Program-made: the position numbers and the translations under genes
Part shown: positions 1 to 56,494 of the stretch, piece by piece
Layout: each line of letters opens with the position of its first letter
Position numbering within the stretch: position 1 is the first letter of the stretch
Source: Rhynchobatus australiae
Taxonomy: Eukaryota
Length of the DNA: 64,000 bases
NCBI GenBank assembly: GCA_034780895.1
Contig: JAUZTB010000027.1
Coordinates: 38,293,631 to 38,357,630, forward strand
Reading direction: 5' to 3'
Notes under the pieces: model-generated
What the model was told of the DNA's origin: nothing
Database searches by the model: none
Seen by the model: the letters and a program-made list of their open reading frames with translations, nothing else

Positions 1-1384
1 CAAGAGGCCCACTCCTGCACCTATTTTCTTATGTTCTTATGAGTTGTGTGGGTGTAGGAATACTAGCTTTTTTGGAGTAACAAAGGTGAGACTTGGAAAA
101 ATATATAGTGTTCCAAGAGGGAGTATTGACTTTAAAATCACCTGGAGATACAAAATGGAGGTTGGGACTGAGAAGGGGATTGGATGTATTAGCTTTTGTA
201 TTTGTGCATAACTGGCCAGAAATGTTGCTGGGGTTTACACAAGTTTGTAACAAATATTCATCAAGGCAGATACTTATTAGAAATTGAAATAAATTCAGGA
301 AGAACATTAGTGATAACAGGCAAAAATTCCTAGTGTTATGGTACTAGCAGCAATCTTTGAAATTAACAGCCGATGGTGATGAAAGCTTTTTGAACAATTT
401 TATGTTAATTTTTGACCATTCTTCTTTGAGTAACTTATTGAATTGTCATTTCTGCAATTGTTTTCTCCGCATGATCAGATGAGGGAATGCAATTTCAGCG
501 ATTAATTTCCAGGTTGCCTTTTAGTTTAAGCAATTTGTGAAATTTACTTTAGTGGATGTTCATTTCTGTCAAACTATTGTTATTAGTACACTGATTCAAA
601 ATATGGGGAAAGGTTAATTGTATAAAACTCTATAATAGGGTGACAAATCTAATTTGTTTTTGGTCAATGCCCAAATTTTTGCCATCAATGCAAGTTTAAA
701 ACAAACCTTATGACTCAAATTAGACTTTATGGTTCGTTGTCCAACAGGGGTTAGAATCAAGGATCACATGTAGAAGTCATCAATTCAGGAAAAGATGAAA
801 AGTTTCTTCACCCAGAGGAAGGGGGTGATTTTTTTTGGACTTCTCCATCCAAGAGCACTGTGGAGGCTTCTAGCCTCCATGAATATATTCAAGGATGAGT
901 GATAAATTTTTAGATATTAATGAAATCTGGGTTAGTGCAGGAAAGTGCCACTGAGTTAAAAGATCAGCTGTGATCTTATTGAATATCAGAGCAGGCACAA
1001 GGGCCAGATGGCCTATTTGCACTTAACTTGCTATAGAGCATCCTATTGGTTGCAGATTTATGCATTTGCTGCGCATTTATTACCTCTTATGTGTACAATT
1101 GAATTTGAGAATGTGTTAACAGGACCATGCTGGTGGTCCTAATTCACTTAAATGGCTACTGGATAAGGAAATTTCTGGCATTTTGAAAGTTTAACAAAAT
1201 TATTCATTCATTGGAAACTGAATAATGCAATTACAGAATAGTAATGATTTTTATTTTGCATGAGTATATCCAGTATGCTTGTGTAGTAGAACACCAATGA
1301 TGCAGCACACTCAGAACGTTGGTGCCAGACAAGCAGATTTTCTGGAGTATTGGGCATTATTCATTATTAATTTTTTTCAGATGT

Positions 1385-3979: not shown

Positions 3980-4116
3980 ATACAACCCTGGAAGGCTGCC
4001 AGCATCAAGTACTACTTTTCCTTATTTAAAGTTTTACTTGAATGTTTGTTTTTATCCAGTTTGAAAGCATCAGATGTGCTTGGTTTACTTTTTTCTTTTC
4101 TGGCTTGTGGTTGCAG

Positions 4117-6332: not shown

Positions 6333-6726
6333 CAGTAAAACTCTGACAATCTAGCATCCTCAGGACTTTGGTGCTGGACTAGTAGATTTTCTGGATGATT
6401 ACTTGTTACTGTTTTACTACCCAAATATACTTATGTCGTTATTTTCAATGTTATACAGGAGTATAATAAATTTCACAGTGAGTTTAAAGGGAGTGGGGAA
6501 TATACAAGCCTGCCGGACCCCAGCTCCATTCACAGAGCCGGCCCACAGTCCGGACCCCAACCCCAGCTCTGGTTGCAAATATGACCCACATTCTGGATCA
6601 TGGCCCCAGCCGCACTTCCCATTTGCTCTCTGGACCCCAGTTCACATTCTGGATGAATGAGTGAGCCAGAAGCCAGACCATCACAATCACTGAACAATTG
6701 GATGCTGGGTGATCAAAGCTTTATTG
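6333..6726. mobile_element. Degenerate non-autonomous DNA transposon (MITE), Tc1/mariner-pogo/Tigger-like
   Basis: Left end TA|CAGTAAAACTCTGACAATCTAGCATCC (6333-6359) matches the reverse complement of 6700-6726 at 20/27 positions. A related left-end fragment lies at about 1283-1360. Confidence 0.5.
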
Positions 6727-7641: not shown

Positions 7642-7861
7642 TTTGCAGGAATCAATTTTAACTCAAGTGCAAAGAATTGTTAAAGGAGAAGTTGGTCTCG
7701 CAATGAAGGAACAACAGGCTGCTGTTGCTTCTAGCATTATGCAGGCCATGCGATCAGCTGCTGGCACCCCAATCCCATCAACTCACATGGATTTCCAATC
7801 CCAGCAGGCCCACGTTTTGCAGCTGTTGCAGCAGGGACAACTTAACCAAGCTTTTCAACAG
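7642..7861 (+). CDS. EDC4: EDC4 coding exon (NLQESILTQVQRIVKGEVGLAMKEQQAAVASSIMQAMRSAAGTP...QLLQQGQLNQAFQQ)
   Basis: aacAG at 7640-7641, donor GTatgg at 7862. 220 nt, phase 2 to 0. Near-identical to human LQESILAQVQRIVKGEV...MQAMRSAAGTP. Confidence 0.96.
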
Positions 7862-27679: not shown

Positions 27680-28975
27680 TCTGATTGAGTTTTTTGAAGA
27701 GGTGACCAAGTGGATTGATGAGGGAAGGACGGTAGGTGTTGGCAATGCCAATGCCCACATGGTAGGTTGGTGCCGAAGATTGGAACATGTGGGATCCAGG
27801 GACAGTAGCAAAGTGTCTCGGCGGTAGGAGAGAGAGGGTGGTAGTAGAGGGTTGTTTTTCAGACGGGAGGCCTGTGACCAGTGGCGTGCCGCAGGGGGCA
27901 GTGCTGGGTCCTCTGCTGTTTACCACATATGTTAATGATTTGGATGAGAAAGTAGGTGAGTCCTGAAGAAGGGTCATGACCCGAAACATTGACCACCTGC
28001 TTTTCCCCGTGGATGCTGCCTGGCCTGCTGAGCATCACCGTGTTTTTCATCTAGATTCCAGCATCTGCGGTTCTTTGTTTCGCAAGATGAGTAATTTGCC
28101 GATGCAATGAACAGCGAAGGTTGTCTGAGGTAACAACAGGATATAGATCAAGTGAGAAAGTGGGCAAAGGAATGGTAGGTGGAACTTAACTCAGACAACT
28201 GCAAAGTGATGATTTAGGAAAGTTAAAGCAGGGTAGAGCAAGCACAGTGAATAGCGGGGCCCTGAGGAGTGGTGTTGAACAGAGAGATCTTGGGGTACAA
28301 GAACATAGTTCCCTGAAAATGGGAACACAGGGTGGGGAGGAAGGCAAGTAGCCTGCTTACCTTAATCAGCAGAGGCATTGAGTGTAAGAGTTGGAAAGAT
28401 GGAAGAGTTGGAAATTTGTACAAAATGTTGCTTAGTTACTCCGCACTTGGAGTATTGTGTGAAGTTCCAGTCACTGCACTGTAACAAGCACGTGATTAGG
28501 TTAGAGAGGATTCACAAGGATGTTACTGGGAGAGGATGGGCTTGAGTTATCAGGAGAGATTGGATAAGCTGGGTCTTTTTTCCCTGGAACGAAGTAAGCT
28601 GAGAGGTGAAATGATAGAGGGACACACAAGGATGAGAGGCAGGGATANNNNNNNNNNNNNNNNNNNNNNNNNNNNNNNNNNNNNNNNNNNNNNNNNNNNN
28701 NNNNNNNNNAGGTGAGAGGAGGAAGGTTAAAGGAGATATGAGGAATAAATTTTTCACCCGAATAGCTGGTGTCTGGAATGAGCTGCCGGAGGAGGTGGTG
28801 GAGGCAGGAACAGTAACATTTAAGAGGCAACTTGAGAGGTATTTGAATGAGCAAGGCATAGAGGCATACGGAATTAATGCAGGAAAGTGGAATCAGTATA
28901 GATGGACCATGGTCGGCATAGACACAGTGGGCCAAAGAGCCTGTTTCTATGCGGTACAACTCTATGACTCGATGA
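27680..28975 (+). mobile_element. Decayed CR1/HER1-like LINE 3' portion, with a nested short repeat at about 27959-28085
   Basis: [43 protein letters not shown]....WNELPEEVV, and tail gggccaaagagcctgtttctatgcggtacaactctatgactc. Confidence 0.88.
27955..28085 (+). mobile_element. Penelope-like pLTR-derived short repeat with a minimal hammerhead-ribozyme motif
   Basis: AGTC-CTGAAGA(A)-GGGTC AT GACCC-GAAA-CATT-GAC, followed by the family motif gatgctgcctggcctgctgag...attccagcatctgc. Confidence 0.65.
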
Positions 28976-29789
28976 GGTCCACTGCAGAGTGCCAACCCAG
29001 TGCACCCTTTTCACATGCTATTTACTTTCTAACCCACGATTTAATCAATGTCTTTGATTGCCATTTGAGAGGCCTCACAGTGTGAACATTAACGTCCTTA
29101 CATCACACAGTGACTACAATTCGTTCCAATTTGAAATGTAAAATAAAGATTGCAACCTCTGCCAAGCTCACTAAAAGCAAAAGAGAATGGGACATGACTC
29201 ATGACTGAAACAGCGCTGAATAAATAATGAGATTTTCTAATCCAAAGTATTATGAGAATGACGATAAGCCGAGCAAGCTACTAGCTTATGCCTGAGGCAT
29301 CTGGCAGTCAGCTATCGCTTTGGAATGACTGCCAGGTACATCTCTGCCATCACACTCATTGCTCTTTAGACAAATTCAGTATTCCAGAGGTAACTTGGAT
29401 TCTCCCCGAACAATCAAAGGCCAGGAATAAAAGCTCAGGCAAATTGAGAGAGATAATCAGTGCCTGCTTCTTCGTCCAGTGTGAGGAGTGCTGCATTTGA
29501 CCTTCTGTTTATCAGTGCAATACTAATCAGAGTTGATCAATACCTAGAAGGTGAACTCTTGTCTTCTTGCAATCTTTACAATAACACATGTTGTGTTTGT
29601 TTTAAAGGCTGAAGATAAAAACATTGATAATTATATAAAACAAGAATATAAGAACAAGCTACAAACTCTACAAGATGCCCTGATAAAGTTTAAATGGAAA
29701 ATTGCACTAGTAAACAAAGCAAGAAAAATTAAGTTGTTTGAGACAATAAATGTAAGGAGAGTTGATCCTATTTATTATGAGGGGTCAGT

Positions 29790-30040
29790 CTTGGTGCTTT
29801 TGCCTCAGAACTTAAGTTATCAATTCAGAGAATGCAGCAAAGACTCGAGCACAAAATCTAGGCCGATAGTTCAGTGTAGTACTGAGAGAGTGCTGCACCA
29901 TTCATGATAGGGTGGTCAATGTAAACTGAGACCCTGCCTGACTTCTTTTGAGGATGTGCAATATTTTGTTGCTACATTTGAAAAAACAAAAATCAGTTTT
30001 CCTGATGTGCTAAATAATACTCATGCCTCAACGAAAACTA
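29790..30040 (+). mobile_element. DeuSINE/SacSINE1-like SINE remnant
   Basis: gactcgagcacaaaatctaggccga...cagtgtagtactgagagagtgctgcac, similar to copies at 44175 and 53600. Confidence 0.55.
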
Positions 30041-30051
30041 AAATAAAAGCT

Positions 30052-30195
30052 GACACAGGAGACTACAGATGCTGGAACCTGGAGCAAAAAATAAACTGCT
30101 GGAGGAACTGAGCAGATCAGGTAGCATCTGTGTTCATTTCTCTCCACAGATGCTGCCTGATCCATTGAGTTCCTCCACCAGTTTGTTTGTTTGCT
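30052..30195. repeat. Fold-back pair of the pLTR-like repeat (arms 30083-30132 and 30145-30195)
   Basis: Left arm agcaaaaaataaactgctggaggaactgagcagatcaggtagcatctgtg is an imperfect reverse complement of cacagatgctgcctgatccattgagttcctccaccagtttgtttgtttgct. Confidence 0.85.
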
Positions 30196-33100
30196 AAAAA
30201 AAAGATTGAAGATTGTTCACCTCCATTTCCCTACAATAACCACTCATTAATAATTCTTCAGAAGGTTTTATGCAATTGTGGAGAGGTGTTGTACTGGAGA
30301 GGCTCATGACACTTTGGATGACCTGAAATAATTTCTGAAACAGGACATGGTTTGAGAACCTTAACCCAGTTAGCCCTGTTCCTCCAGTGGACATGCCCAG
30401 TGAGTGTAGTGTACCAGTTAAACTGGTACTGGTGAATTTGTCTTCNNNNNNNNNNNNNNNNNNNNNNNNNNNNNNNNNNNNNNNNNNNNNNNNNNNNNNN
30501 NNNNNNNNNNNNNNNNNNNNNNNNNNNNNNNNNNNNNNNNNNNNNNNNNNNNNNNNNNNNNNNNNNNNNNNNNNNNNNNNNNNNNNNNNNNNNNNNNNNN
30601 NNNNNNNNNNNNNNNNNNNNNNNNNNNNNNNNNNNNNNNNNNNNNNNNNNNNNNNNNNNNNNNNNNNNNNNNNNNNNNNNNNNNNNNNNNNNNNNNNNNN
30701 NNNNNNNNNNNNNNNNNNNNNNNNNNNNNNNNNNNNNNNNNNNNNNNNNNNNNNNNNNNNNNNNNNCTCTCATGTGTGAAGAGGGGATTTAAAATGGGTT
30801 TCTTCGGATATGCAGGCCTATTTGTCCTAAATGTCACGTTCTGATCCTCTTCAGCCTTAACACAGTCCTCCAGGAACCTGACACGTTAAACTTCTGGCAT
30901 ACAATATGTCCAAATTCCATTGATGATGTTGAATTCATTGGCACCTAACTAGCTCGAGAACAACCCTGTACCGGGTTTGGGATGGATTTGGGCAAAGAGG
31001 ACACAGACTGTAGGACTGGAGCGCTGCTGCCACGGAGTGTGCTGGGGAGACAGGGGGAGCATCCACCGTTGCCAGAGCTGCTCACGTGGGCTCCTGGATT
31101 AAACGGTAGACGATGAGTGGGCCTGGAATGCGTCACTGGAATTAAATGTCAAGAGCAGCAAAGTGGTTGGCATAACAACTGCTTTCCCGTGCAAGTCATC
31201 CCATTGTGTTGAAAAAATGAAGCCCTTTTAACAGTCATTTCTAAGGAAGAAATTTCACCCACAACAAATATCAGTAACCTTGTCCTTGAAAGCAACCCAG
31301 CTCCTAACAAGGACTCGAAGGGGTAATGATGTTCATTATGTTGGATGGGGCTATTAGATTGTAGTCCTGTTTATGACCCTCACTCCCTGTCTCGTGGGGG
31401 ACCTTGCTCTCTCTGGTTTGCCCCATCTCACTTTATTGTCTGAAATGGTTTGCCTCTAGTGCTATGCCTCTTGTCTGGAGAGTTTATAAGTTAGACTTAC
31501 TCATTCCTTAGTATCTGCAGCTATAGGTATCTATAAATAAATGACAATATTACATCAAATGTTGGCCATCAGGATGCATAACATGCACTCCAATGACCTA
31601 TAAGGACCGAAGCTTAAACATCTGTGGCCTCAGTTTATCCTGGTGTACACTGACTTATCACTTAGCTTCATGTTCTAAGGGAATATGGATCAGAAGATAA
31701 GCTCCTGGCACTTTGGTTGAATGAATTTGGAAATCCAAGACACTGGTTGCATTAGATTCAGAAAATGCAAATAAGTCTAAGAATCATACCATTCCAGTTT
31801 CTCCTTTTCTGTTCTGAAGGTACTGTTATTGGCCAGGATATGGCTCTACGATCTTCACACACCCTCATGTACTTCATTGGATGGCTAGATCTCTAATGAT
31901 CAGGCTAGGCAGCAACAGTTACCTGACTACTTGTGAGTGGCAGGCCCCACAGCTGAATCTGCTCCTATCTTCACCCAGCAACCACAGGGTTGCCAGGAGG
32001 GGCCTCTGGGTACTAAAAAGGACCTGGATTCCTACCAGATTTTCATGCCACTCCTAGCACAGAGGTGCAGAGGGACCATATCACTGATCCAGTGGAGAGA
32101 CACAATCCCAACATGGACCAATGACCAGGCCCAGGTTTACCCTGGGAGATTTTGACCCAGATTCAAAACAGTAGAAATAAAAGTAAAATTAATGAGATGG
32201 CATCTTTTAACTGCACTGGATCAGCAGGTNNNNNNNNNNNNNNNNNNNNNNNNNNNNNNNNNNNNNNNNNNNNNNNNNNNNNNNNNNNNNNNNNNNNNNN
32301 NNNNNNNNNNNNNNNNNNNNNNNNNNNNNAAATAAAAGTATCAATGAGACGAGATAAGAGGAGCTGCAAAGTGATGCTGAATGAGAGCGGAGCACAGATA
32401 TTTATACAGTTACTCATACATCAATGAGCTACTTGCTTTCAGAATGGTAAACAAAAACACTTCATCATGTATGCCTGCTTCCGTTGATTGATCCCAACCT
32501 AAATTCTAGTGGGCATCTCTCTGATTAAATTTGTTCTTTAGTGTAGGTGATGCTAGAGGTACTGATTATCCTGGCATGAGATCAGGGATAAAATAAATTA
32601 AGTTAAATCTAAGTTAAGTAACTAATTGAGATCATGCACCTGGGACCTGGACTGCTCCCTGTCCATGTTAAGTCCCATTATTAAGTCATTGTCACATACA
32701 GGAATTTCCATGAAGCCAATCTTCATGAGATGACGTTGAACAGACTGGGACTACTCACTGCAAATAAAGTTACAGTGCTTTTGCGTGGTGTAATTACCTG
32801 TGCCGCAACCTCACTGAATGAAGCAAGTGTTGGCACTTCACAAACTTATTATTGTACAATGGTCTAGTTCATATTACCTGAAACTTAAAAATAAACAGCT
32901 TAAGTCAAGTGTGCGTTCTAAAAGTAAACCGAATTCATTGTCCACTTTCACTTGGAAGCTTCACTTGCTCCCGTCAGAATGAATGAAATATCTTTATCAT
33001 CAGCTCAAGATTATGTTGCTAATATTCTGATTGCGTACTTGTCACAATCATTGGGAACAAGGACAAAATACGTTTATTCCAATAAATCTTTTTCTCACAC

Positions 33101-34044
33101 ACAAAACGGATTATCAAATGTCTGATTGAGTCTGTGGTGAAAAGCACTTCCCTAATTGCCTTTGTTCACTGGGGACTCATTTGTGTAATTAGGGAATTGA
33201 AGTAAACAGCAGTGGTTGCACGCAATGTTCAATCCTTCAGTCCCTCCTTCAATAACATAGCATGCAACTGGGAAATCTGAACTAACCAACATGCCATTAT
33301 ATTATTTAGTCCTTTTGAGCATCTTAGAATATTTGGCATCTTCCTTCATGGAAATTAGCTGCAAAAACAGGTTATTAGAAATGTTCAATAGATGGCGGTT
33401 ACAAACTGGAATCAGAGAGATGGGTAAAAGCTGTGATTTCCAAAGTTACACAGAATACCAGGGTTGTAGCAAAGTCACTCTCTTTCAGAAGTGCCATTAA
33501 GAGAGGGCGTTTCCCATGGGAAAGGAAAGGGAGACAAGGGTGACATTGGTCCTGGACTGGTTACGTTCACCCTGGGGTGATAACCAAGTAGCTTCTGTGG
33601 AGAGCTGAGAGCCTGCTAACAAATAATTAGCCAGCTCCCTGTGACGGATGTAGAATGGGTAAAAGGGAAGGATGATAACTTTCCAGCTGGGCCGAAGCGT
33701 AATTGTCCTGTTAGGAATTGTGTTCCGGCACACCATTCAGGACATTTGATGCTTGATCTGTGTTCATTTAGCGGATGTGGACAGCTGCGGTGCTTTATTT
33801 AACCTCAGTGGCTGGTTGGGGAACACAGTCACACTGGGACATCGTTTAGGAACTCACGTTGGAAATTGCATGTGAGTGGATTTGGTGTGACCTTGGGGAA
33901 GAGTGGACTCTGACGAACCTCACGGTTTAATAATCTGCTGACCCTGGATGTTTATGTTCACACTTGAGAAACAGCTGCAAAATTTGTTGTGGGTTAGAAT
34001 TAAAACAGCACTCAGATATCCTCGGTTCAAACTATGTTATTATC

Positions 34045-35520
34045 CCTAACCATATAAGAAATAAGAGTAGGGGGAGGCCAAGCAGTGCCTTCAGCCTGAT
34101 CTCCCATTCAATTTGATCATAGCTGTTCTGATCAATGCCCCTGCTGCACATTCCTGCCCAATGCCCTTGTCTCTCCACTCCCCTGTTGACTAGAAACTTA
34201 ACCACCTCAAGCCCAGTGAGTCAGTCTCCACAGCTCTCAGGGGTAGGGAATGTCTTTCTGAAAGAAGAGATTCCTCCTCACCTCTGTCCCAAAAGGATGG
34301 CCTCTGTTTGGAACCTGTGCTCCTTAACCCTTAACTACCCCATGAGAGAAAACGTCGTCTCAGAATCCACTTTGTCCAGTCTCCTCAGAAGCTTATATGC
34401 TTCAATAAGATCACCCTCATTCTTTGAAACACCAATGAGTACAGGCCCAACCTGTTCAACCTCTTCATCCCAACCTAGTAAACCAGTGTGTCCAATGCAA
34501 ACATATCCCTCCTTAAATAAGGAAACCAAAGCTGTGTGCAGTACTCCAAGCATGGTTTCACCAACACCCTGTATGGTTACAGTAGGGCAGCCCAAGTCTT
34601 ATACCACAGCCACACAGCAACGAGGCCAACATTCCATTGATCTTCCTAATTCCTTGTTGTACCTGCACATTAACTTTGTTTCATGTACAAGGACAAATAG
34701 ATCCCTTGGTACTATTTTGTAGTCTCTTTCTCTATCTAAACAGTATTCTGCTTTTCTTTTCTTCCGACCAAAGTGGATAACCCAGTTGTTTCTGAAATTA
34801 TACCCCGTTTGCTGAATTATCACCCGTTCACTTCACCTAAATATATTCCCTTGTAGGATCTTTGCATCCTCCTCACAGCTTATTTTGCCAGCTACCTTTG
34901 AATCACTGGTAAATTTTAGCCACAATCCACTTGATTGCTTCACTCTTGTCATTAATATAGATTGTAAATAGTCGATACCCCAGCACTGATCCCTGCGGCA
35001 CCCCATTAGTTACAGCTTGCCAACATGAAAATAATTCACTTATACCAAACCTTTTCTGTCACTTAACCAGTCGTCAGCCAATGTTAATATATTACCCCCC
35101 ACCCTCTCATGCCAGAAGTTTGTACTTTTAAGTTGCACCTTTCTGAATGCCTTCCAGAATGAACTGGTTCCCCTTTATTCCCTCATCCTGTTCATTACTT
35201 TGCAGAGAATGTCGGTCAATTTATCACACGTAGTTTCCTTTTCACTAAATCATATTGACTCTGCTTGATTATATTATGATTCTTTTAAGTACCTTGTCAC
35301 AACTTACTTAGCAAGGAATTCCAGCAATTCCCAGTGAGCTGACTTTCCTATGTTTTCCTGCTTTCTTGAATAGGAGCTACATTTACAGTTTTCCTAAATT
35401 CTAAGGTCTTTCCAAAAGGCAGTAGAGTTTGGATGATCATGACTAACGTACACACTAGCTCTGTGGTGCAGGTGGTCAGGTCCAGGGGACTTGTCAGTCT
35501 TCAGTCCCACTAGTTTACCC
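34045..35520 (-). mobile_element. Decayed CR1-like LINE
   Basis: Minus-strand GDLIEAYKLLR.LDKVDSE, IHFGRK.RKAEY.L and RDL.VLVHE, plus cccagcactgatccctgcggcacccc (GVPQGSVLG). Confidence 0.8.
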
Positions 35521-36668
35521 AGAGCCATGTATCTGGTTATTACTCAAAGTTCCTTTCNNNNNNNNNNNNNNNNNNNNNNNNNNNNNNNNNNNNNNNNNNN
35601 NNNNNNNNNNNNNNNNNNNNNNNNNNNNNNNNNNNNNNNNNNNNNNNNNNNNNNNNNAAGCAATTTCAATTTTTGGCACAGACTATACTGATGCAGAAGA
35701 TGAAACGACACAAGTTCTGGGGAAGAGCTCTGTGCCTACAAAGAATTCTGTTTTTGACAGAATTACTGAATCAAGTGGAATGTTTTAAGAGAGGCTTGTA
35801 TTAAAATGTGGAAGCAGTTCAAAACACTGAAGCATCTTTGAAGGTTGTTAGAGTTGCTATAGACTTACTATTGTCGGCCCAATTCAACATAGCTTGGGAT
35901 AGACAGGATGGACTGAAAAATACCAGAATTGGGAGTCAAGGGGATGATCCTGAAAGGGAAAGTCAGGAGTCAATTTTGTGACTCCAAAACAAAAAAAACA
36001 AAATGTTTTCTGTACACAGGAAATCAGAATGGAGTTAGAATTCCAAATAACAAAAGCAGAGGCACAAATATGGAGAGCTTTAAGCCAAAGTAGAAATTCT
36101 TGTGATTGAATTCACGGTATCCAAGTACACATTGTATATTGTACTGATGTCACAGAATGTCATATTGTCACCCATGCTGGAAGTTCTAATGAAAAATAAT
36201 GCTCAGCCTTGCGGGATTACAGTTTGTTCCTTTCATCCCTCACTAATGACCACCCTCTAAACAAACTTGTTATCTCCTATTTAAGACAATGACATTCATC
36301 CTTTTCTCTTTGAGTGTCCATGTCAACAAATTCTTAACTTCCAGGTTCCCCTCTATCCTGAGAACCACTTACTGAAAGGTAAACAGGGCCATCGCTGCAT
36401 TTAGGAATATTGGAACGGGAGTGAGCCTTTTAGCTCGTTCTGCCCTTCATGGAAACCAGGGCTAATCCGTGACCCACCTTCCTTTTCCTGCTTTCCCCCC
36501 AACCCCTTCAGACCGATGGTTAACCAAAGTCTATCACATTCAGTCAATGCAATGATTTGCTGACTCAACACAATCCTTGTCTGGCTTTTACTGGGTTAAT
36601 TAATTGCAAGAAAACATGTTCCGATAGGTTCCTAGTGAAGGCAGCCTGAAGTAGTGCCAGCAAAGTAA

Positions 36669-36672
<4 letters not shown>

Positions 36673-36742
<70 letters not shown>

Positions 36743-36855
36743 AGAATGTATGTGCATGTGTAAATGTGTGTGGGTGCATGAGTGTGTGTGTACATGTGTA
36801 TGAATGTGAGTGTGTGTGTTGTGCGTATGGTTTGCGTATGGTGTGTGTGTGTCTA
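36673..36855. repeat. (TG)n microsatellite with a degenerate extension
   Basis: Nearly pure TG at 36673-36740, then TG-rich imperfect repeats. Confidence 0.95.
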
Positions 36856-38337
36856 TGAGAGTAACTGCAGCACACCTCCTAGATGACACATCTGGTGACC
36901 ACAGTGACTGGGGTTGGAGGGGATGAAGATTCAGTGAGGTGAATGGGGGATGCACATGTCCACCCAGCTGGCAAGTATTCCATTATTCTCTAGATGGTGG
37001 AAAGGCTTTTCACCTCAGGAGGTGAGTCACTCACTCAAGGTAGCCGCACTCACCAGTTCTTGTAGCCACTGTACTTACACGGCTGTTCCAGTAAAGGTTT
37101 GCGTCAGTGCTGAACAGCAGGTGTTGATGGTAATGGACAGTCTTGTTTAGCCAACCCTCTCTCGCTGGAGATAGACATTGCCACAGCCACTAAATCTGAG
37201 GGCCTTCTCCCTGCCAACTTTTACTGCTATTTCTTCAGAGAGTTTTGGAGGACCTTCCAATCGTGGTTTAGTGGTCAGGTCCCCTTTAAGAGTTGCCATG
37301 ACAACAAACAACTGATGAATGCTCAAGTGATTTGAATGCCAATTACTTGCTGCTCATTGGCTCAGGCTTGAACAGACGGGCACACCTGCAGCAGGTAGAT
37401 GGGTGAGGATGAAGCCAGGTGTGGGTTCCTCTCTCATGCTTGTCCTTTAGGACACAGCCAGCTCAGTCAGTGGTGGTGCTACCAAGCCAATCTCAGTGAT
37501 GGACATCGAAACCACACATGCTGAGTGCGCTTTGCACTCCTTTACTGCATCTTCTAAGTGTTGTCAACGTCACTGAAGGAGGAGGTAGGTGCCATTTCAC
37601 CTCAGCTCTGGGCTCCCCAGGTGCCAAATGTTGCCCTCCTCCTCACCACCCAGAACACTGAGACTGGTATCACCAGCCCAGTTTAACACCCTCACAGCCA
37701 CTTCAGCAGAATCCTGGCCAACAACGTCCACTGTGCCACAGTCTGAAGCCAGGTGCCCTTAAAGAGTTGGAATTCTATCCAGGGTGCAAGGTATTTGAAT
37801 AAGAATCAAAGCCTTCTGAGGAATAATTTGTCAAAGCAGTGCATGGTGCATTGATAATCCACACACTATTCGATGACTGCAAATGGTGAGAGAAAATTAG
37901 AGCTGATTCATCCTGTCAGCTACTTGTAGAGGTTGAATTTGATCTTCAAACTGGAGCCAAGAGCAAAGGCCCAACCCACACCTGGGAAGGACCTGACCGC
38001 ATCCCCGCTCTCTGTCCNNNNNNNNNNNNNNNNNNNNNNNNNNNNNNNNNNNNNNNNNNNNNNNNNNNNNNNNNNNNNNNNNNNNNNNNNNNNNNNNNNN
38101 NNNNNNNNNNNNNNNNNNNNNNNNNNNNNNNNNNNNNNNNNNNNNNNNNNNNNNNNNNNNNNNNNNNNNNNNNNNNNNNNNNNNNNNNNNNNNNNNNNNN
38201 NNNNNNNNNNNNNNNNNNNNNNNNNNNNNNNNNNNNNNNNNNNNNNNNNNNNNNNNNNNNNNNNNNNNNNNNNNNNNNNNNNNNNNNNNNNNNNNNNNNN
38301 NNNNNNNNNNNNNNNNNNNNNNNNNNNNNNNNNNNNN

Positions 38338-38420
38338 GTTTCGCCCTGAAATGTTGACTGTTCATTTCCCTCCACAGATGCTGCCTGACCTGCTGAGATC
38401 CTCCAGTGTTTTGCTCCAAT
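38338..38420 (+). mobile_element. pLTR-like repeat, 3' half of the hammerhead motif (5' half in the N gap)
   Basis: gtttcgccct-GAAA-TGTT-GACT-gttcatttccctccacagatgctgcctgacctgctgag. Confidence 0.6.
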
Positions 38421-38887
38421 CTAAAACCTCCTCTGTTCAAACAAAGATGTGGAAGTGGGGGAGGGGGGAGAGGGGGAGGGAGGGAGAGGGAGAAGGAGGG
38501 GAGGGGAGCACCATAGGACTGTACCTCTGAAGGTCTGCATCAGGAAGGAGGAAATATTGGACACATTAGGGTGGATAACTCCCCAGGGCTTAACGGGATC
38601 TCTACCAGGATGCTAAGGGAAGCAAGAAAATGTTCTGGAATTTGATGGACTTTGGGAGGTGGGAATGGGGGGAGATTTGGCTGCACCGGTATGGTTGCCA
38701 GGTGCAACGGCTGCCCGTCCTCCCCTCTTCCTCCTCATGGCTTAGGACTTTCTTCTCTGGGCAGTGGGGTGAGTGGTCACACCCGCAACTCCGTAATGAT
38801 AAAGACAAAAAAAGAAGAGCATGGCAATAATGAAGCTTGACATTGTGAAGTGGAGCAGCCAGCAGACATGTGCATGTCCCTAGTATC

Positions 38888-39014
38888 AAAAAAGCTGCAG
38901 ATGCTGGAAGTCTGAGACAAAAGTGGAACGCGCTGGAAAAACTCAGCAAGTCAGGCAGCATCTGTGGAGGGAGATTCAGAGCGAACGTTTCCGGTTGAAG
39001 AACCTTTGTCAGTT
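38888..39014 (-). mobile_element. pLTR-like repeat with a degenerate hammerhead motif
   Basis: Reverse complement reads CTGACAA-AGGTT CTTC AACCG-GAAA-CGTT...ctccacagatgctgcctgacttgctgagtttttccagc. Confidence 0.6.
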
Positions 39015-41142
39015 TATATACGCGGGCAGGCCGTTCAGTTCTGGTGGGGTTTCTGCAGGGGACGTGCTGCTAACCACGTACGACTGTCACCGAGCCTGGA
39101 CCCTCAGAACCTGGCACCAGGAGGATGATGCAGGCTAGGTTGGCAGCACACAACCCCTCGTGGTGGGATACCCAGCAGTAGTGGCCTGCAGTTGGGATAG
39201 TGGCCATCAAAGGTGGTGTTCCAGCTCCCCAGCAGGGGAAGGCCATGCACCAGTTCTGGTCAGGAAGACTCCAGTGAGGACTACAACACCGACATCCCCT
39301 GTCTCCTACACTCCACCTTCCAGTATTCTGAACAAATTCATTGCTCTCTTTTGACTCAACAGGAACGGACTGCTCGGATTTAAATTACAGCCTTCAAATT
39401 TTATGCACGTGAACAATTTTATCATTGAAGCAATATTTTGGTCAGTCTTCTGCTGGATATTGACTTGAAACCTGTTTTCTTTTAAGCTAGTTATTGTTGG
39501 TGTGGGGCAATGTTTTCTGAATGCTTTTGATTAAAATCCAAGATTCCCAGTGGAGTGCCTGCTTTGAACAGGAACTCTTGTTGTGATCGACAGTTACTAA
39601 TCTGTACAACTTCTATTAGTACATGTCAATTACAGGGGCTGAGCCTGGTTGACCTTTTCTCTGGATAAACTTCACTCCTTCATTTTTTTGAGTGGCTGAT
39701 TAAAAATATGATAAAAATATGAACTGTTATGTCTACATCCTCACAAGAATATTAATTCTTCACTGCAACAACCTGAGTATTCCCATCGTGCACTCTGAGC
39801 TTTGGATCAGCTTTGAGGAGTAGGATTATCAAGGAAACTGGGATTTGGAGGGTTGGTAGGGGAGGCGGGTGGGGGGGGGAGGGCCAGGATTTTGGGGATT
39901 AAGGCTCAAGAATGTGAATAGGCGGATGGGGTTGGGTTCCATTTGGGCAGGAGTTCAATCGGGGAGGGTTGGTTGAATGAAGTTTACAGCAGGAGGGAGC
40001 TGGGAGAATTTGATGGTTGGAACAAAGGGATTAAAAATTCCTCAACGATTTCCTGTCTTTCAGAAGATTCAAGTGCTGGCCTGACCTTTAAGTAACAGAA
40101 AAGTACCCTGGACCTGTCTTGTGCTCCAGTATAAAAGGGCAGCCCCATTCATAGGTCACANNNNNNNNNNNNNNNNNNNNNNNNNNNNNNNNNNNNNNNN
40201 NNNNNNNNNNNNNNNNNNNNNNNNNNNNNNNNNNNNNNNNNNNNNNNNNNNNNNNNNNNNNNNNNNNNNNNNNNNNNNNNNNNNNNNNNNNNNNNNNNNN
40301 NNNNNNNNNNNNNNNNNNNNNNNNNNNNNNNNNNNNNNNNNNNNNNNNNNNNNNNNNNNNNNNNNNNNNNNNNNNNNNNNNNNNNNNNNNNNNNNNNNNN
40401 NNNNNNNNNNNNNNNNNNNNNNNNNNNNNNNNNNNNNNNNNNNNNNNNNNNNNNNNNNNNNNNNNNNNNNNNNNNNNNNNNNNNNNNNNNNNNNNNNNNN
40501 NNNNNNNNNNNNNNNNNNNNNNNNNNNNNNNNNNNNNNNNNNNNNNNNNNNNNNNNNNNNNNNNNNNNNNNNNNNNNNNNNNNNNNNNNNNNNNNNNNNN
40601 NNNNNNNNNNNNNNNNNNNNNNNNNNNNNNNNNNNNNNNNNNNNNNNNNNNNNNNNNNNNNNNNNNNNNNNNNNNNNNNNNNNNNNNNNNNNNNNNNNNN
40701 NNNNNNNNNNNNNNNNNNNNNNNNNNNNNNNNNNNNNNNNNNNNNNNNNNNNNNNNNNNNNNNNNNNNNNNNNNNNNNNNNNNNNNNNNNNNNNNNNNNN
40801 NNNNNNNNNNNNNNNNNNNNNNNNNNNNNNNNNNNNNNNNNNNNNNNNNNNNNNNNNNNNNNNNNNNNNNNNNNNNNNNNNNNNNNNNNNNNNNNNNNNN
40901 NNNNNNNNNNNNNNNNNNNNNNNNNNNNNNNNNNNNNNNNNNNNNNNNNNNNNNNNNNNNNNNNNNNNNNNNNNNNNNNNNNNNNNNNNNNNNNNNNNNN
41001 NNNNNNNNNNNNNNNNNNNNNNNNNNNNNNNNNNNNNNNNNNNNNNNNNNNNNNNNNNNNNNNNNNNNNNNNNNNNNNNNNNNNNNNNNNNNNNNNNNNN
41101 NNNNNNNNNNNNNNNNNNNNNNNNNNNNNNNNNNNNNNNNNN

Positions 41143-41273
41143 TGGGAGGAAACCGGAGCACCCGGAGGAAACCCACGCAGACACGGGGAGAACGTACAAA
41201 CTCCTTACAGACGGTGGCCGGAATTGAACCCGGGTCGCTGGCGCTGTAAAGCGTTAAGCTAACTGCTACACTA
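41143..41273 (-). mobile_element. tRNA-derived V-SINE (HE1-related), 5' part
   Basis: Reverse complement has B-box ggttcaattcc and V-domain gagtttgtacgttctccccgtgtctgcgtgggtttcctccgggtgctccggtttcctccca. Confidence 0.85.
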
Positions 41274-41404
41274 AATTAGGGGAAGCTAAAAAAGAGTTTC
41301 TCTTAGTTTAGTCTTCCTTCTCTCTCTCTGTGGAATTCCTCAGTTCTTCCTCTGAGTTCAGGGGACTTGTGGACATGATTAGGTTTTTCACAGTAATTAA
41401 AAAT

Positions 41405-41545
41405 AAAAAACATAAAACAGAAACACTTAGCATTCAGAAATGGTTCTGACGAAGGGTTTTCATCCTGAAATGTTGACCCTGTTTCTCTTTTCACAGATGC
41501 TACCTGATCTGCTGAGTGTTTCCAGCATTTTCTATTTTTATTTTA
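41405..41545 (+). mobile_element. pLTR-like repeat with a minimal hammerhead motif (41436-41486) and a partial inverted copy upstream
   Basis: agaaatggtt-CTGACGA-AGGG ttttca TCCT-GAAA-TGTT-gacc ct gtttct, followed by cacagatgctacctgatctgctgagtgtttccagc. Confidence 0.65.
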
Positions 41546-43353
41546 GGTCACTCACAGCTTTGAGCATGTTGGACCCTTGTGTTTGTTCCAGGTACAACTT
41601 CTATGGTTAAAATGTTTTTAATCCAAACCCCTGGTCATTTTCTACAGCTCTTTACACCTTCAATTCTGAAGTAGTTAACTATTTCTCTTTTAATCAGTTT
41701 AAAGTGACCAAGTGTAGGGGCAATATTTTCTACATCCTCACACTCCTATGCGTGGAATCTTTTTACCTGGCTTCACTTTTCATTGATGTGGTTCCAATGC
41801 TGTTCTCAATTTCCTTCACACCAATCAGTGAGATCACCCTATAACCACTCCCCTTTAGAGTGAATTGCTACAGATTAAAGCTCAATAAGCCCTCTGTTGT
41901 GAAGTTAACCATTTTCCCATCAGAATGTATTGACTAATTGGTGTAGAAGCATCCATATTAGGTGTTAACGTTGTGATACAGGCAGCATCTGTGGAGAGAG
42001 ATTCAGAGCAAACGTTCCAGGTTGAAGAACCTTTATCCATTCATATACCAGGGCAGGCCGTTCAGTTCTGGTGGGGTTTCACCCCCTAACATTCTCCCTC
42101 CCTACAGGGGATGTACTGCTAACCATGTACNNNNNNNNNNNNNNNNNNNNNNNNNNNNNNNNNNNNNNNNNNNNNNNNNNNNNNNNNNNNNNNNNNNNNN
42201 NNNNNNNNNNNNNNNNNNNNNNNNNNNNNNNNNNNNNNNNNNNNNNNNNNNNNNNNNNNNNNNNNNNNNNNNNNNNNNNNNNNNNNNNNNNNNNNNNNNN
42301 NNNNNNNNNNNNNNNNNGATCCCGACTCACTCACTGGTCTTGATAAATGACAACATCTCATTAATTGAATCTTCATCCCACCCCCACAACAAAACCAACA
42401 TTTTGGAAAGATGTAACTATACTGAATGGGAATTTAAATGTTGGCCACTTGGTGATAATATCTTGGTGATAGAAAATAGTTTCATGTAGTTATTGGAGTA
42501 AGTGTCATTAGTACTTTAAACATTGCATTAATGGTACTTTCATTTATATTGACTAACCCGTTGAAATTGTTAAGCCACTTGTGCTGTTGTGTTGGTACCT
42601 GCAGTGGTGAGTTTGCTGTTAGTACTGGTCAGAGTCTATTTCTTCTCCTTGGTCTCCCTGCTCTGCTTGATACTCCCAGGAGAACTTGAATGGCCCCATC
42701 AGGGACATGGGGCAAACTCTCCCTTCCTGAACACTGGCAACATCGATGTCCTGTCTACCCAATTGTGCAGCCCATTCACTTGTGGCAGACCTTGAAATGT
42801 TGCAGCAACACCAGGTATATGACCCAGCAGGCACAGGCATTTTCTACAACGGATATCATTCCTCATTTGAAACTTACCCAAAGTGGTCAACACAGTAGAA
42901 CGTGGGCAAGTGCGTTTAACTCGACCAGATTTGGAGAATCTAACCAAGTGCTTTCATTTCGCAGACTAGCTGTAGCAATTATTATTTTTGCCTACTCAGT
43001 TAAATGTTTGAACAACCTGTGATTGAAATCCATGTAGTTTGACAAGTGTGTCACCAATCATCCTTAACTGATAGAGAAGCACAGTTTATGGAGATGTTCC
43101 ATTTCAACTGTGCCAACCTGACTTTGGAGATCAGACTTCCAAACACCAGCTACATGCTCAAAGAATTAGTTAGAGTCTGGTCTCCAATGCTGAGGGTGAG
43201 TTTGCTCCACTCCAACATCGTTCGCTGTTGAAGGGAGGACAGGAAGCAGCAAGAACAACAACAACAACAAGGCCGTGATTATCTGACCACCACTGCTGGG
43301 GCTGGCAATTGCTCCTTATTGCAAACACTGTGACCCTTAACTGACCTTTGCAG

Positions 43354-43368
43354 TGACTGAGCTGTCTG
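43354..43368 (+). CDS. NRN1L: Candidate start of NRN1L exon 2 (V-T-E-L-S...); the remainder is inside the N gap 43369-43741
   Basis: Branch-like ccttaac/ctgac followed by ctttgcAG at 43352-43353. A phase-1 join to exon 1 (g+tg = Val) stays open into the gap. I found no CD..YKGF..CL..LGD exon in the sequenced parts of 23020-47627. Confidence 0.4.
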
Positions 43369-43835
43369 NNNNNNNNNNNNNNNNNNNNNNNNNNNNNNNN
43401 NNNNNNNNNNNNNNNNNNNNNNNNNNNNNNNNNNNNNNNNNNNNNNNNNNNNNNNNNNNNNNNNNNNNNNNNNNNNNNNNNNNNNNNNNNNNNNNNNNNN
43501 NNNNNNNNNNNNNNNNNNNNNNNNNNNNNNNNNNNNNNNNNNNNNNNNNNNNNNNNNNNNNNNNNNNNNNNNNNNNNNNNNNNNNNNNNNNNNNNNNNNN
43601 NNNNNNNNNNNNNNNNNNNNNNNNNNNNNNNNNNNNNNNNNNNNNNNNNNNNNNNNNNNNNNNNNNNNNNNNNNNNNNNNNNNNNNNNNNNNNNNNNNNN
43701 NNNNNNNNNNNNNNNNNNNNNNNNNNNNNNNNNNNNNNNNNTCCCCACAAAGGCAGGTGTAATGCGGATTTTAAAGTCTGAGGTCACTGGGGTGTAATAT
43801 TGACCGCGCTATGAAGCTCGCACTCCCAGCTAATT

Positions 43836-43990
43836 CAGAGACACAAGAGACTGCAGATGTTGGAATCTGGGGCAACAAACAATCTGCTGGAGGAACTCAG
43901 CAGGTCGAGCAGCGTCGATGGAATTCCCTTCCTCCCACAGATGCCGTTCGACCCGCTGCACTCCTCCAGCCGTTCGTTTGTTGCTCCCAG
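43836..43990. repeat. Fold-back pair of the pLTR-like repeat (arms about 43867-43921 and 43935-43990)
   Basis: ctggggcaacaaacaatctgctggaggaactcagcaggtcgagcagcgtc pairs with gatgccgttcgacccgctgcactcctccagccgttcgtttgttgctcccag. Confidence 0.8.
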
Positions 43991-44171
43991 CTAATCCCAC
44001 AATTTTCCTGCAAAGTCCGACAGTTCAAACTTACCTCCCACCACTTTGTCCCTTCACAGTGTAGTGCAATCTCCAGTGTCCGTAACTGCTTCAAAAGAAG
44101 TGACGGTTAGTCTCTGTGGGCGGGAAGGGCCAGTGCTGTTCAGGCATTTCCATGGCTGTGTTTAACTGGAA

Positions 44172-44335
44172 GCCACGGCTCCGTTGGATGCGCCCTCGCC
44201 TCTGAGTCAGTACCTATGGGTTCAAGTCCCATCCCTCAGATGACCATAACACGGGAAGCCAACATCCCAATGCAATACTGAGGCAGGGCCACATTCAGGG
44301 CGACTGGTTTTAGATAAGGTTGTTTAAACCCCTCA
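44172..44335 (+). mobile_element. DeuSINE/SacSINE1-like SINE 5' part (tRNA-like head)
   Basis: ggctccgttgg...gcctctgagtcag...gggttcaagtccc (A/B box remnants) followed by caatgcaatactgagg. Confidence 0.55.
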
Positions 44336-44770
44336 TCTTATTGAGTGCTCTGCTGTTACTCTCTGAAATAGCTCCGTCCCAGTTAATAACTCATCCCACG
44401 GTTTCATGTCTATGTTGACACTCACTTTGGCACTGACTTGACCTTAAAATCCTCATCTCTGTTCCTTGCATGGCCCAGGCTCTCACTGACTTATGAATGA
44501 CCACCAGCACCACTATTCTCCAAGATATTTACACTCCTCCGATTATTCGCTCAGTCACATCTCTGAATTGATTCGAGCAATCGGACATCTACCTGTCAAG
44601 ATTCTAAGCACTGGAACTCTCCCCTCCCCTCCCATAAACCTCTCTGAATTGCTCTTCTTTTTTACAAAACCCATGTAAATAGCTCTGGCTGTAGGTGGGT
44701 GGCAATTATGCTCACGCACACACAAAATTGTTGCTGNNNNNNNNNNNNNNNNNNNNNNNNNNNNNNNNNN

Positions 44771-44862
44771 AACGGTAGAAACACTCAGCAGGACAGGCAG
44801 CATCTGTGGAGAGAGAAACAGAATTATCTTTACAGGTTGAAAACTTTCTGTCAGAACTGGGA
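44771..44862 (-). mobile_element. pLTR-like repeat with a decayed hammerhead motif
   Basis: aaacactcagcaggacaggcagcatctgtggagagagaaacag...caggttgaaaactttctgtcagaac. Confidence 0.55.
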
Positions 44863-46534
44863 AGGAGAGAAAATAAGTTAATATAATGTTGCAGGGAGGA
44901 TAGGAGAGGGATGGATAGGATTAAGGGAATATCTCCGATACTGTGGGGCCCGGGGATTAGCTATAAACCGAGTTATCAGGTCAGTGAATTATTGGAGACA
45001 GTGAGAGAGGACATGGTCTTTTATGGGAGTTGAGAGGCATGTGAGAGAAACTAAGCTGCAGGGAAGTAGGTGGGGGAGTGAGATTGATGGGATTGATGGG
45101 ATTGATGTGAGAGCTAGCAGAGACTTGAAGGCGTGAGTAGCCTCCTTCTGTGTTGTAATATGAACAGTGAGTATAGTTCAAAACTTCTTCATCGACTGTA
45201 GATGGTTTGGGACATCCTGAGGTCATGAAAGGTGCCATAGAAATGCAAGTCCTTTGCGTGGGTAAATACATTTCTTGAGTATATCTCCCCACTCTGGGCC
45301 AAAGAGCAGGGAGATCCCACAGTGACTGCTGGCACTCAGGACACTGCTGTTCCTGCACTGACCACAGGGTCCTGGCCGATGTCCTTCAGTGTGGACCCCA
45401 TCTGACTGTTGGTGCCTCACAGATCTGGTGCTCCACCAAGGCTCAGTCTAGCTCCAAGTTGATAGTTTGCGTTCCATCTGCTGATGAGGAGACAGGCAGT
45501 GATCCTTCCTTTCCTTTTGCATCCTTCCCCACCATCTGCAACCTTCCTCCTCATTTATCCCTGCCATAGTGTGACAATGTTAAAAAATCAAATCACTGAA
45601 CCCATAGAGCCGGCACGGAGCAGTAACAGCTTCCGTGTGTTTTAACAAACATAAAAATTGCTACAATTGGAAAAATATTAATAGTAAAAAGAAAATTGCT
45701 CTTGGATTGATAATTTCCAAGTTTGTTCAGATGTCCAGCAAACAATTTATGATCCAACTCGATCTGCAGGACCATACTTTCCACTCCAACATACCCCACC
45801 TCTCACTCCAATTGATTCCTCCTTCCCAGCTGTGGATGTGCTCTTCATTATTCTATGTTCTCAAATGACAGGACATTTCTCACCGGCTACAGCCTATGAC
45901 ATCCAGTGAACTGTTGCCCTCTACCTTATAACTAACGTGCTATCCCAAGTAGTTACCTGTTCAGTCTTCTAATTAAAGTTACTTCCTAAATACATTCATT
46001 TCCTACAAAGTATTTAGCTGACATTCCTCTAAGCTGGAATTCAGCTTTATAATTTACTTCACGGTCCAAATCTTATAATTCATAAAGTTTATTCAGTACA
46101 TTTAGTAATAAAAACTTGCTTTAAATAAATTATATAACTGATTTTGTAATTAATNNNNNNNNNNNNNNNATCATCATATTTCTGGTTGTTTTCTATAGTT
46201 AGCTATCTATCCATTTAGAAATAATGTTGATTATTTGCTAAATTTTAAATGATCTGTCTAAAGGAAATGAATTCATTTAATAATTCAGAAGGTTGGAGGA
46301 ACAACTAGTTTTGATCTCTTAAAAGGAGAAACACTTCAATTGTTCCCACCATTTACACCGTCCACCTCATCACGGGTAGAGCCTTCGCCGAAAAGTGCCA
46401 ACCCTTACCCTAAGGACCAATTGCAAAGGCACATTGAGAGGTGTGGCAGCTATTTCAGGCAGATTTGATCATGGAATCCTTTCTGATTCTCTTACCCCTG
46501 GCTTTTGTTCATCATACATTTCTTAACGTAATTA

Positions 46535-46613
46535 AATACGGAAAATGCTGGTCAGGGAGTCTGTGGAAAGAGAAACAGTTAACATTTCAGATCAGAGAGC
46601 CTTCGACAGAATT
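46535..46613 (-). mobile_element. pLTR-like repeat with a decayed hammerhead motif
   Basis: Reverse complement: aatt-CTGTCGA-aggctctctgatct-GAAA-TGTT-aactgtttctctttccacag. Confidence 0.55.
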
Positions 46614-46729: not shown

Positions 46730-47222
46730 TCCCACTGTAGGAAGGATGTCACTAAGCTCGAGATGCTGCAGCAAAGGTTCAAAGGATGTTGCTGGGACTG
46801 GAGGGCTTGAGTTATAAGGAGAGACTGGATTAGCTGGGACTCTTTGCCCTGGAGCGGAGGAGGCTGAGAGATGGCCTTACAGAGGTTTATAAAGTCATAA
46901 GGTGCATAAATAAGGTAGATGGTCACAATCTGTTTCCCAGGGTAGGGGAGTCGAAAACTAGAGGGCACAGGTTTACGGTGAGAGGGGAAAGATTTAAAGG
47001 GGATCTGAGGGGCAAGTTTTTTGCAGAGATACTGGGTAGATGGAACAAGCTGCCAGAGGAGATGCAGAGTTAAAAAACATTTGGTCAGGTCCATGGATAG
47101 GAAAGGTGTGGAGGGATATGGACCAAATGCAAGCAAAAAGGATCAGCTTGGATGGGCATCTTGGTCGGCATGGATGAGTTGGGCTGAACGGCCTGTTTCC
47201 ATGCTGTATAACACTATGGATC
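46730..47222 (+). mobile_element. CR1/HER1-like LINE 3' fragment
   Basis: ctggagggcttgagttataaggagagactggat...gaggggaaagatttaaaggggatctgagggg..., tail gggctgaacggcctgtttccatgctgtataacactatg. Confidence 0.85.
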
Positions 47223-47627
47223 TAATTATTTGGACTCATGATCCGGGCCTTAGTTGCACAAAGGTGGAAATCTATCCCCTCCCTGCCCACAACTATCACC
47301 GTCCAATGGCAAGAGTGGGAAAGTCTTTATGGCACCTGAGATAAACTGTGGGGAGTGTACATGGCCAAGGCAAGGGGAAGATGGCCCAGGGAAGCCCCTG
47401 AGTTGGGGTTGATGGTGGCGTTACATAACTTGGCACCCCAGTAAACAGCAGGCTCTTCAGATGAATCAATGAGGTTACTTGATAGTGATGTTGTAACGGA
47501 CTCCTTTTCCCATTGGTGTTTCACAGGAGTTCTGGAATGAGCTGTTTCCTGGGATTTTATCTTGTGCTTGCACCTTTTGCACTACCTGAGTAGATCAAGT
47601 CACTCCTGTCTGTGCTTCTGTCTCCAG

Positions 47628-47907
47628 GTCCTGGGACAATTTCCACGCATGCGCAGACTCGGTTCTGGAAGGTTGTCCGGAGGATGCAGCCTCCATCTGG
47701 GAGTCGCTGAGGAAGGAGTCCAGGAAATTGCAGTTCCAAGGCAACTTGCATGAGCTGTGCAGTCTGAGGGTCAGGCCGTCTGGCACCATGGAAAGCTCAG
47801 ACGGGAGTGAATCGAACAGAGAGAGTCTGAGGGGCTCCGCTGGCTCCCTGTGGTGTGGACTTACAACCCCTGTCCTGTCCATTGCTGTGCTGGTGGTCAA
47901 CTTGTAG
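47628..47907 (+). CDS. NRN1L: Neuritin-like protein last exon (SWDNFHACADSVLEGCPEDAASIWESLRKESRKLQFQGNLHELC...GSESNRESLRGSAGSLWCGLTTPVLSIAVLVVNL*)
   Basis: Acceptor cttctgtctccAG at 47626-47627, stop TAG at 47905-47907. Neuritin signature W..FH.C....L.GCPE.AA.IWESLR.ES. NRN1L-type spacer (human GSETNQETLR). Hydrophobic GPI-signal-like C-terminus. Confidence 0.93.
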
Positions 47908-56161: not shown

Positions 56162-56494
56162 CAGCACAGGGTGGTGCAGCTGGTAGAGCTGCTTCCTCAC
56201 AGTTCCAGCGACCTGGGTTCAATCCTGACCGCGGGCGTTGTCTTTTGTAGAGCTTGTGCGTTCTCCTTGTGACTGTATGGGTTTCCCCTGGGTATTCCAC
56301 TTTCCTCCCACATCCTAAAGTTGGGTAGGTTGGTAGGTTAATGGGCCATCTTAAATTGCCCCTTGTGTATAGGTGAGTGGTGGAATCTGCTGGGAATGTG
56401 GAGGATTAGTGTAGGATTAATGTAAATGGGTGTTGATGGTTGCCCCAGATTTGGTGGGCCAAAGGGCCTGTTTCTGTGCTGTATGACGCTGTGA
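56162..56494 (+). mobile_element. Near full-length HE1-type V-SINE
   Basis: A-box tggtgcagctgg, B-box ggttcaatcc, V-domain (ttctccttgtgactgtatgggtttcccctggg...tttcctcccacatcc), and CR1/HER1-derived tail ggtgggccaaagggcctgtttctgtgctgtatgac. Confidence 0.88.

Follow-up and report, generated by a model that had tools for sequence, protein, structure and literature searches.

A common hammerhead-bearing short repeat of Rhynchobatus australiae is the end of Penelope-like retrotransposons

We analysed a stretch of 64,000 nucleotides (hereafter the window) from the cartilaginous fish Rhynchobatus australiae (assembly GCA_034780895.1, contig JAUZTB010000027.1, positions 38,293,631 to 38,357,630 of the forward strand). 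It holds the last coding exon of a neuritin-family gene and, upstream of this exon, several copies of a short repeat with a hammerhead ribozyme motif. A preliminary description had placed six copies at 27955, 38338 and 41436 on the forward strand and at 38888, 44771 and 46535 on the reverse strand, and the repeat is indeed present at each of these places. A profile made from 54 genomic copies of the repeat gave 10 matches in the window and none in reversed sequences. Beyond the six, we found a partial copy (41979-42037) and two head-to-head pairs (~30052-30195 and ~43836-43983). Elsewhere in the genome, the same terminus is joined to open reading frames (ORFs) for a reverse transcriptase (RT) and a GIY-YIG endonuclease; hence, the repeat is the pseudo-long terminal repeat (pLTR) of autonomous Penelope-like elements (PLEs). 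We read its copies, with a probability of about 0.85, as decayed terminal stubs of such elements, made of a minimal hammerhead and a tail of 70-100 nt, the elements being likely of the Neptune clade.

The copy at 27955 (27959..28082, forward strand) is a solo hammerhead with its tail, belongs to the youngest subfamily (A) and has 93% identity to the subfamily majority. Its 5' end is the A of a CAG that is a hot spot for such ends (see below). It splits a decayed RT fragment of a CR1-type long interspersed element (LINE; window ~27700-28400, forward strand) and is therefore the younger insertion. Its minimal type-I hammerhead (27960..27993) has helix I GTC/GAC, the core CTGAAGA, a bulged A, helix II GGGTC/GACCC and GAAA; G16.2 is replaced by A, the CG of the ACGU palindrome (helix III) is missing, and the hammerhead consensus predicts a cut after position 27990 of the forward strand. 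The copy at 41436 (41443..41546, forward) is a solo hammerhead with a short tail, of a D-type subfamily, that begins at the edge of helix I and keeps all core letters, with stems weakened by wobble or mismatch pairs. The copy at 38338 (38338..38412, forward) retains the 3' half of the hammerhead and a short tail, its 5' portion being under N. On the reverse strand, 38885..39012 is an old solo hammerhead with a long tail and a core broken by G8 to A, 44771..44982 is a D1-type copy with ~128 nt of pyrimidine-rich 3' untranslated region (UTR), a broken hammerhead and part of the tail, and 46532..46611 is a decayed solo hammerhead with a partial tail and a core broken by A6 to T. The head-to-head pair at 30052..30195 consists of tail-only pieces without a ribozyme core. 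The other pair, also of tail pieces, is flanked by the copies of a 12-bp target-site duplication that begin at 43823 and 43984 (43823..43995 in all), while no clear duplication was seen at the copies at 27955, 41436 or 38888. The partial copy at 41979..42037 (reverse strand) shares its flank with 38885-39012. We considered these two as a new TATA-led family and rejected it: the common flank matches only these two places of the genome, which implies a single insertion, later duplicated. The local duplication spans 38952-39080 and 41979-42130, 3,027 nt apart, and takes in the stub and its flank.

The stem II pairs previously quoted for these copies (GGGTC/GACCC, AGGG/TCCT and GGTT/AACC) are all present, while the hammerheads themselves are less complete than their stems suggested, since no copy in the window is structurally complete. 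A relaxed descriptor passes only the copy at 27955 (its match starts at 27960), with four matches in a 1-Mb sample of the genome and none in the reversed sequence or in 10 shuffles. Of the motif searches suggested earlier, the descriptor thus found something, whereas the Rfam models returned no hammerhead family in the window at E<=5. The weak Rfam matches to miRNA families in the window are the head-to-head hairpins. The copies of the window are likely inert.

No Penelope ORF is visible in the window, as the preliminary description had stated, and the identity of the repeat comes from other loci of the genome. Some copies are preceded by Penelope RT fragments or by the last part of a GIY-YIG domain; a GIY-YIG match precedes 34 of 270 copies, in seven of eight subfamilies, mostly 220-390 nt from the core. 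One locus (L109) shows in a single stretch the DKG motif, RT, thumb, cysteine linker, GIY-YIG domain, stop codon, ~300 nt of pyrimidine-rich UTR, hammerhead and tail. Pfam matched RVT_1 on one genomic piece (L105, E 1e-8) and GIY-YIG on another (L104, E 6e-4, under the family cut-off), the other four of the six pieces scanned being without match. The pLTR lies on the 3' side of the ORF at many loci and on the 5' side at L203 alone, where the order is hammerhead, tail, 35-nt leader and ORF start. All ORF-linked copies are frameshifted and no intact ORF was found; following the LSKG region towards full-length 5' ends led to gaps and truncations. The proteins have a CX4CxxC linker and, at the C-terminus, a GIY-YIG domain with CCHH (L080, L104, L072), features that define Neptune or Nematis in the accessible part of Craig et al. 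(bioRxiv 10.1101/2021.04.23.441226), and vertebrate PLEs are mostly Neptune or Poseidon according to one preprint. On these motifs, the elements likely belong to the Neptune clade. Chiloscyllium and Stegostoma have the closest relatives among named proteins, in agreement with the elasmobranch setting proposed at first, and the Stegostoma protein seems to read through into a peptide that may be the same hammerhead translated.

To quantify the repeat, we used one hundred 10-kb stretches at round-number places of 15 large contigs (the 1-Mb sample, with 818,531 non-N bases; small contigs were left out). The 186 profile matches in this sample extrapolate to 4-5 x 10^5 copies per genome. First-look searches of the genome had returned 2,432 and 2,083 candidates with the repeat and 5,781 with an RT piece, and PLE ORF remnants occur in 16 of the 100 sampled stretches. 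The copies sort into at least eight subfamilies, seven of which include ORF-linked members. In subfamily E2 (L114:3933-4120, L237:5716-5900, L140:3850-4007) only ~40-70 nt separate the ORF end from the hammerhead and there is no pyrimidine tract. The hammerhead repeat ranks among the most frequent short repeats in this genome, and it is a Penelope end, not a short interspersed element (SINE) or a retrozyme.

This differs from the initial proposal of a separate non-autonomous, retrozyme-like family, i.e., a short hammerhead unit processed to monomers or circles and moved in trans. Many copies do form a fixed unit of 100-135 nt with target-site duplications, and one preprint, in which animal retrozymes are traced back to pLTRs, gives a count of them for one chondrichthyan. 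Moreover, a few reads in three RNA runs of a related species (12, 1 and 3) run back over 137 nt, from the edge of the hammerhead to the end of the tail, although tandem DNA would also give such reads. Yet, short and ORF-linked copies occur in the same subfamilies, the units begin at helix I and not at the cut site, and the hammerhead is of the minimal PLE type rather than the canonical retrozyme type. Among 183 sample matches there are 21 head-to-head pairs and 11 close direct neighbours, some partial; arrays of at least three full units are absent from the sample and the window, rare arrays elsewhere being possible. Without head-to-tail arrays the retrozyme explanation fails its defining test, and we regard it as very improbable.

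The repeat hammerhead is a minimal type-I ribozyme (min-HHR) with a palindromic helix III from a Penelope pLTR, as had been recognised from the window alone. The subfamily majorities have CUGANGA, a bulged A, a helix II of 5 bp, GAAA, an ACGU palindrome, a GUU or GUC triplet and a helix I of 3-5 bp. The CUGANGA and GAAA core is the majority in A, B, D1, D2 and E1. It is altered to CAGAUGA (U4A) in B2, where 17 of 33 copies have A at position 4, and to CUGAUGC (A9C) in C, where 34 of 49 have C at position 9. Both B2 and C are abundant and keep intact stems in spite of the core change (examples at L159:8720-8817 and L029:2008-2134); natural variants of the hammerhead core are known in general. 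The palindrome (15.2-16.2) is the majority after allowing for CpG decay. Individual copies are much more degraded, with the whole core kept in 68 of 270 and a structurally complete hammerhead in 8 of 270 (1 of 64 from the sample). As anticipated, compensatory changes are found, in two pair series that pass through G.U across subfamilies and represent few independent events: pair 2.1-1.1 is C-G in 121 copies, U-A in 62 and U.G in 25, with noise from CpG decay (41 copies with C.A), and pair 10.1-11.1 is G-C in 109, G.U in 105 and A-U in 22. For a complete copy of 41 nt the fold contains helices I and II, while fold z-scores were uninformative save for one tail at -2.15. In the active master elements the hammerhead was likely functional, as a weak ribozyme that would need a dimer or protein help.

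For the 5' ends, we pooled 151 copies of the sample (duplicates and weak alignments removed) with 111 picked by their tail sequence only, and 189 of these 262 were scored. The 5' ends of 48 of the 189 fall at -6..0 from C3, i.e., within 7 nt at the 5' edge of helix I, when ~7 are found in a simulation with uniform breakpoints (~1.1 ends per base everywhere); the excess has P ~1e-25 relative to the upstream bin and 5e-8 relative to the downstream one. The best single-point fit is at -4, the A of CAG, and the hot spot persists in the sample alone (33 of 114). The flanks of these ends show neither relatedness nor an excess of pyrimidines. In seven of eight subfamilies the majority has CAG, its helix partner being variable, and an AT-rich, TATA-like box lies 29-31 nt upstream of its A in most of them (counted by eye from the majorities), which is the spacing between a TATA box and an initiator. 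Among the remaining 5' ends, 14 are at -40..-7 and 8 at +27..+30, around the cut site. A peak at the cut site would have been a record of cleavage in vivo and was hinted at by 3 of 11 young copies; it was not upheld among the 189 ends, where the 8 observed compare with ~6 simulated. The 3' ends are bimodal, at ~+86..102 and ~+122..128, about 30 nt apart (the reference stops at +128). Target-site duplications of 9-17 bp exceed the 99% null in 11 of 125 solo copies. Junctions with ORF sequence fall at -5..-2 in 6 of 21 cases, from four loci, two of which were picked with a query beginning at the hammerhead.

We lean, with modest confidence, towards uncut RNA being the template, on which copying began at an internal site and went on as far as the 5' end. 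RNA polymerase II would start at this CAG, by means of the TATA-like box at -29 to -31 of the upstream pLTR; a TATA box with an initiator is described in the pLTR of an Adineta element (PMC3846280). The RT would prime at the nicked target and begin internally in the tail, as in Anolis Poseidon, for which the accessible part of the published work reports both an internal RT start and an uncut template (PMC11167929). After just 100-135 nt the enzyme would reach the uncut RNA's 5' end and run off, and the short cDNA might then be integrated alone, fold back, or switch to another part of the RNA, the pasting likely being the work of the RT and the GIY-YIG nuclease that the elements encode. Jumps from within the ORF are seen among the copies, beside target-site duplications and head-to-head pairs.

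The position of the hot spot also invites an explanation by splicing, in which CAG is a 3' splice site and the RT copied RNAs that had been spliced to the hammerhead exon. A pyrimidine tract and CAG directly precede helix I in seven of eight subfamilies, with some branch-point-like words, a minor peak lies at -2, the first base after AG, and there is a precedent in Drosophila. However, the AG is still present at most ends, 25 of the 48 extending to -4 or beyond, and the fit at -4 beats that at -2 by 9.5 log units. There is no common upstream exon, and 20 of the 48 hot-spot ends adjoin an inverted copy. The reference ORF does not continue with GT at same-strand hot-spot junctions (3 of 4 readable), and we saw no GT donor at any of the hot-spot ORF junctions that are readable. 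None of the RNA data sets listed had this stretch. The RNA reads of the related species, which are many and come from mixed copies, have no splice joint into CAG among the best-supported joints listed. In one comparison, the match of many reads breaks off at -5/-4 and the reads then continue in various ways; this is consistent with the hot spot but confounded by subfamily differences. We judge splicing to be improbable. As a side observation, ~0.13-0.29% of the records of these runs match one terminus (L262:1485-1815) at 80% likeness, and a strand bias of ~3:1 over the UTR favours the sense strand of the element if the library was stranded as usual.

Another explanation keeps the PLE origin and attributes the hot spot to pausing or template switching of the RT at the folded hammerhead, or to a nick by the nuclease in the pLTR. 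In its favour is the excess at +14..+20, which coincides with the palindromic helix II and includes many inverted junctions; self-priming at palindromes has been proposed for Adineta Penelope, and the nuclease of the Anolis element, in the accessible part of its description, cuts its own ORF-pLTR junction. On the other hand, the RT would presumably reach the 3' side of a helix first while the main peak is on the 5' side, helix I has only 3-5 bp, and beyond -5 on the upstream side there is a steep fall in the number of ends, from 48 in 7 nt to 14 in 34 nt. This explanation is unlikely, albeit with a chance that we take seriously.

Several points weigh against run-off from a start at CAG, or against parts of the wider interpretation. 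The end counts leave out 73 of the 262 copies, dropped beforehand for N (35), for being longer than the reference (19) or for a pyrimidine-rich flank (19). The arms of inverted pairs are not independent, and non-inverted copies alone have 28 of 132 ends at the hot spot. The pile-up is wider than one point, with peaks at -5, -4 and -2, and the second excess at +14..+20 (26 of 189) consists mostly of inverted junctions. Subfamily E2 has neither the TATA-like box nor the tract, and the stretch before helix I can equally be read as a branch point, a pyrimidine tract and CAG. The Penelope of Drosophila has a TATA-less internal promoter, and its intron ends at helix I. Read starts or ends do not pile up in the RNA of the related species, whose library may be unable to show them. 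As for the elements themselves, the Neptune label is based on motifs and Nematis has the same linker motif, the compensatory counts reflect two inherited changes and not many events, and the stability of the fold does not exceed that of shuffles (z 0.25).

A more specific form of the run-off model, to which we give an even chance, is that PLEs make a short run-off cDNA like the strong-stop DNA of retroviruses. The RT would start in the tail of the 5' pLTR of an uncut transcript and stop where the transcript begins, at the base of helix I, and ~10^5 inserts of this genome would be fossils of this intermediate. If this is the case, the template's 5' end is not set by the hammerhead. The two widespread subfamilies with altered cores (U4A, A9C) suggest in turn that cutting is dispensable or tuned down.

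The exon that gives the locus its context is the last coding exon of a neuritin-family (NRN1L-like) gene at 47628..47900 on the forward strand (end approximate), identified from its translation and a Pfam PF15056 match at 47611-47769 (E 9e-18). The preliminary description had placed the repeats in the introns of NRN1L. The gene family and last exon hold, while the intronic position is only putative, since we did not find upstream exons in the unmasked window or in the 20 kb upstream of it. A second neuritin-family gene of the genome (L284, G000:C98:69459997-69462712) has two exons 2.5 kb apart. That the host kept copies to cut or regulate the neuritin-like pre-mRNA is barely credible: the sole point in its favour is that copies sit upstream of the last exon, whereas their orientation is mixed, none is fully intact, and the 10 matches in 56,881 non-N bases compare with ~13 expected from the sample. 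With such a genome-average density, nothing ties the repeats to this gene. The window also contains a second dispersed short repeat (28909-28967, 47161-47219, 56436-56494, 1494-1552 and 1653-1711), which we take to resemble the 3' tail that the HE1 SINE and HER1 LINE of elasmobranchs have in common, as well as a tandem duplication of 68 nt and a degenerate repeat rich in purines at 3832-3967 and 4664-4899.

Hammerheads in the termini of fish PLEs are already published. As pLTR hammerheads have been described from many animals, the family itself matters little; what changes is the annotation, in which a common short repeat becomes a Penelope end, and the fixed 5' start is an in-genome record bearing on the role of the hammerhead in the Penelope cycle. 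Our literature search found nothing on Penelope hammerheads of sharks or rays or on a 5' hot spot, with Repbase, Dfam, subscription journals and bioRxiv supplements outside its reach. The following comparisons refer to the accessible parts of the papers cited. The min-HHR of metazoan pLTRs, including those of the fish Xena, Poseidon and Neptune (Cervera and De la Pena 2014, PMC4209133), have the same type-I core with an extra base between A9 and 10.1, a palindromic 15.2-16.2 without loop 3, mostly single dispersed copies, opposite-strand pairs and several consensus families per genome. They differ in that helix II has 5 bp here and majorities include the U4A and A9C core variants. The copies here number 4-5 x 10^5, nearly all decayed, compared with 4,000-9,000 descriptor matches in coelacanth and Xenopus, the two measures being different. 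The one of its two supplements that we searched contains no shark or skate names.

Non-LTR retrozymes (PMC7229834; bioRxiv 10.64898/2026.07.22.740005) are also short, non-coding, related to pLTRs and equipped with a type-I hammerhead, but they are tandem units expressed as circles, whereas the copies here are solo or head-to-head and joined to ORF remnants. The Neptune-clade PLEs with an endonuclease (Craig et al.) share the C-terminal GIY-YIG with CCHH, the CX4CxxC linker, the DKG motif, heavy 5' truncation, the adjacent inverted copy and an optional 30-nt tail, although we found no intact ORF here. Poseidon PAc of Anolis carolinensis (Frangieh et al. 2024, PMC11167929) likewise has its hammerhead where pLTR and ORF meet; its 3' ends fall at two points 30-40 nt apart, and there is no sign of cut RNA as template. 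Its ORF starts inside the hammerhead, while the only locus informative here (L203) has the start ~35 nt past the tail. No 5'-end hot spot is reported there for PAc; the one present here agrees with in-vitro data for an uncut RNA template and gives a prediction of the start site at the level of the base.

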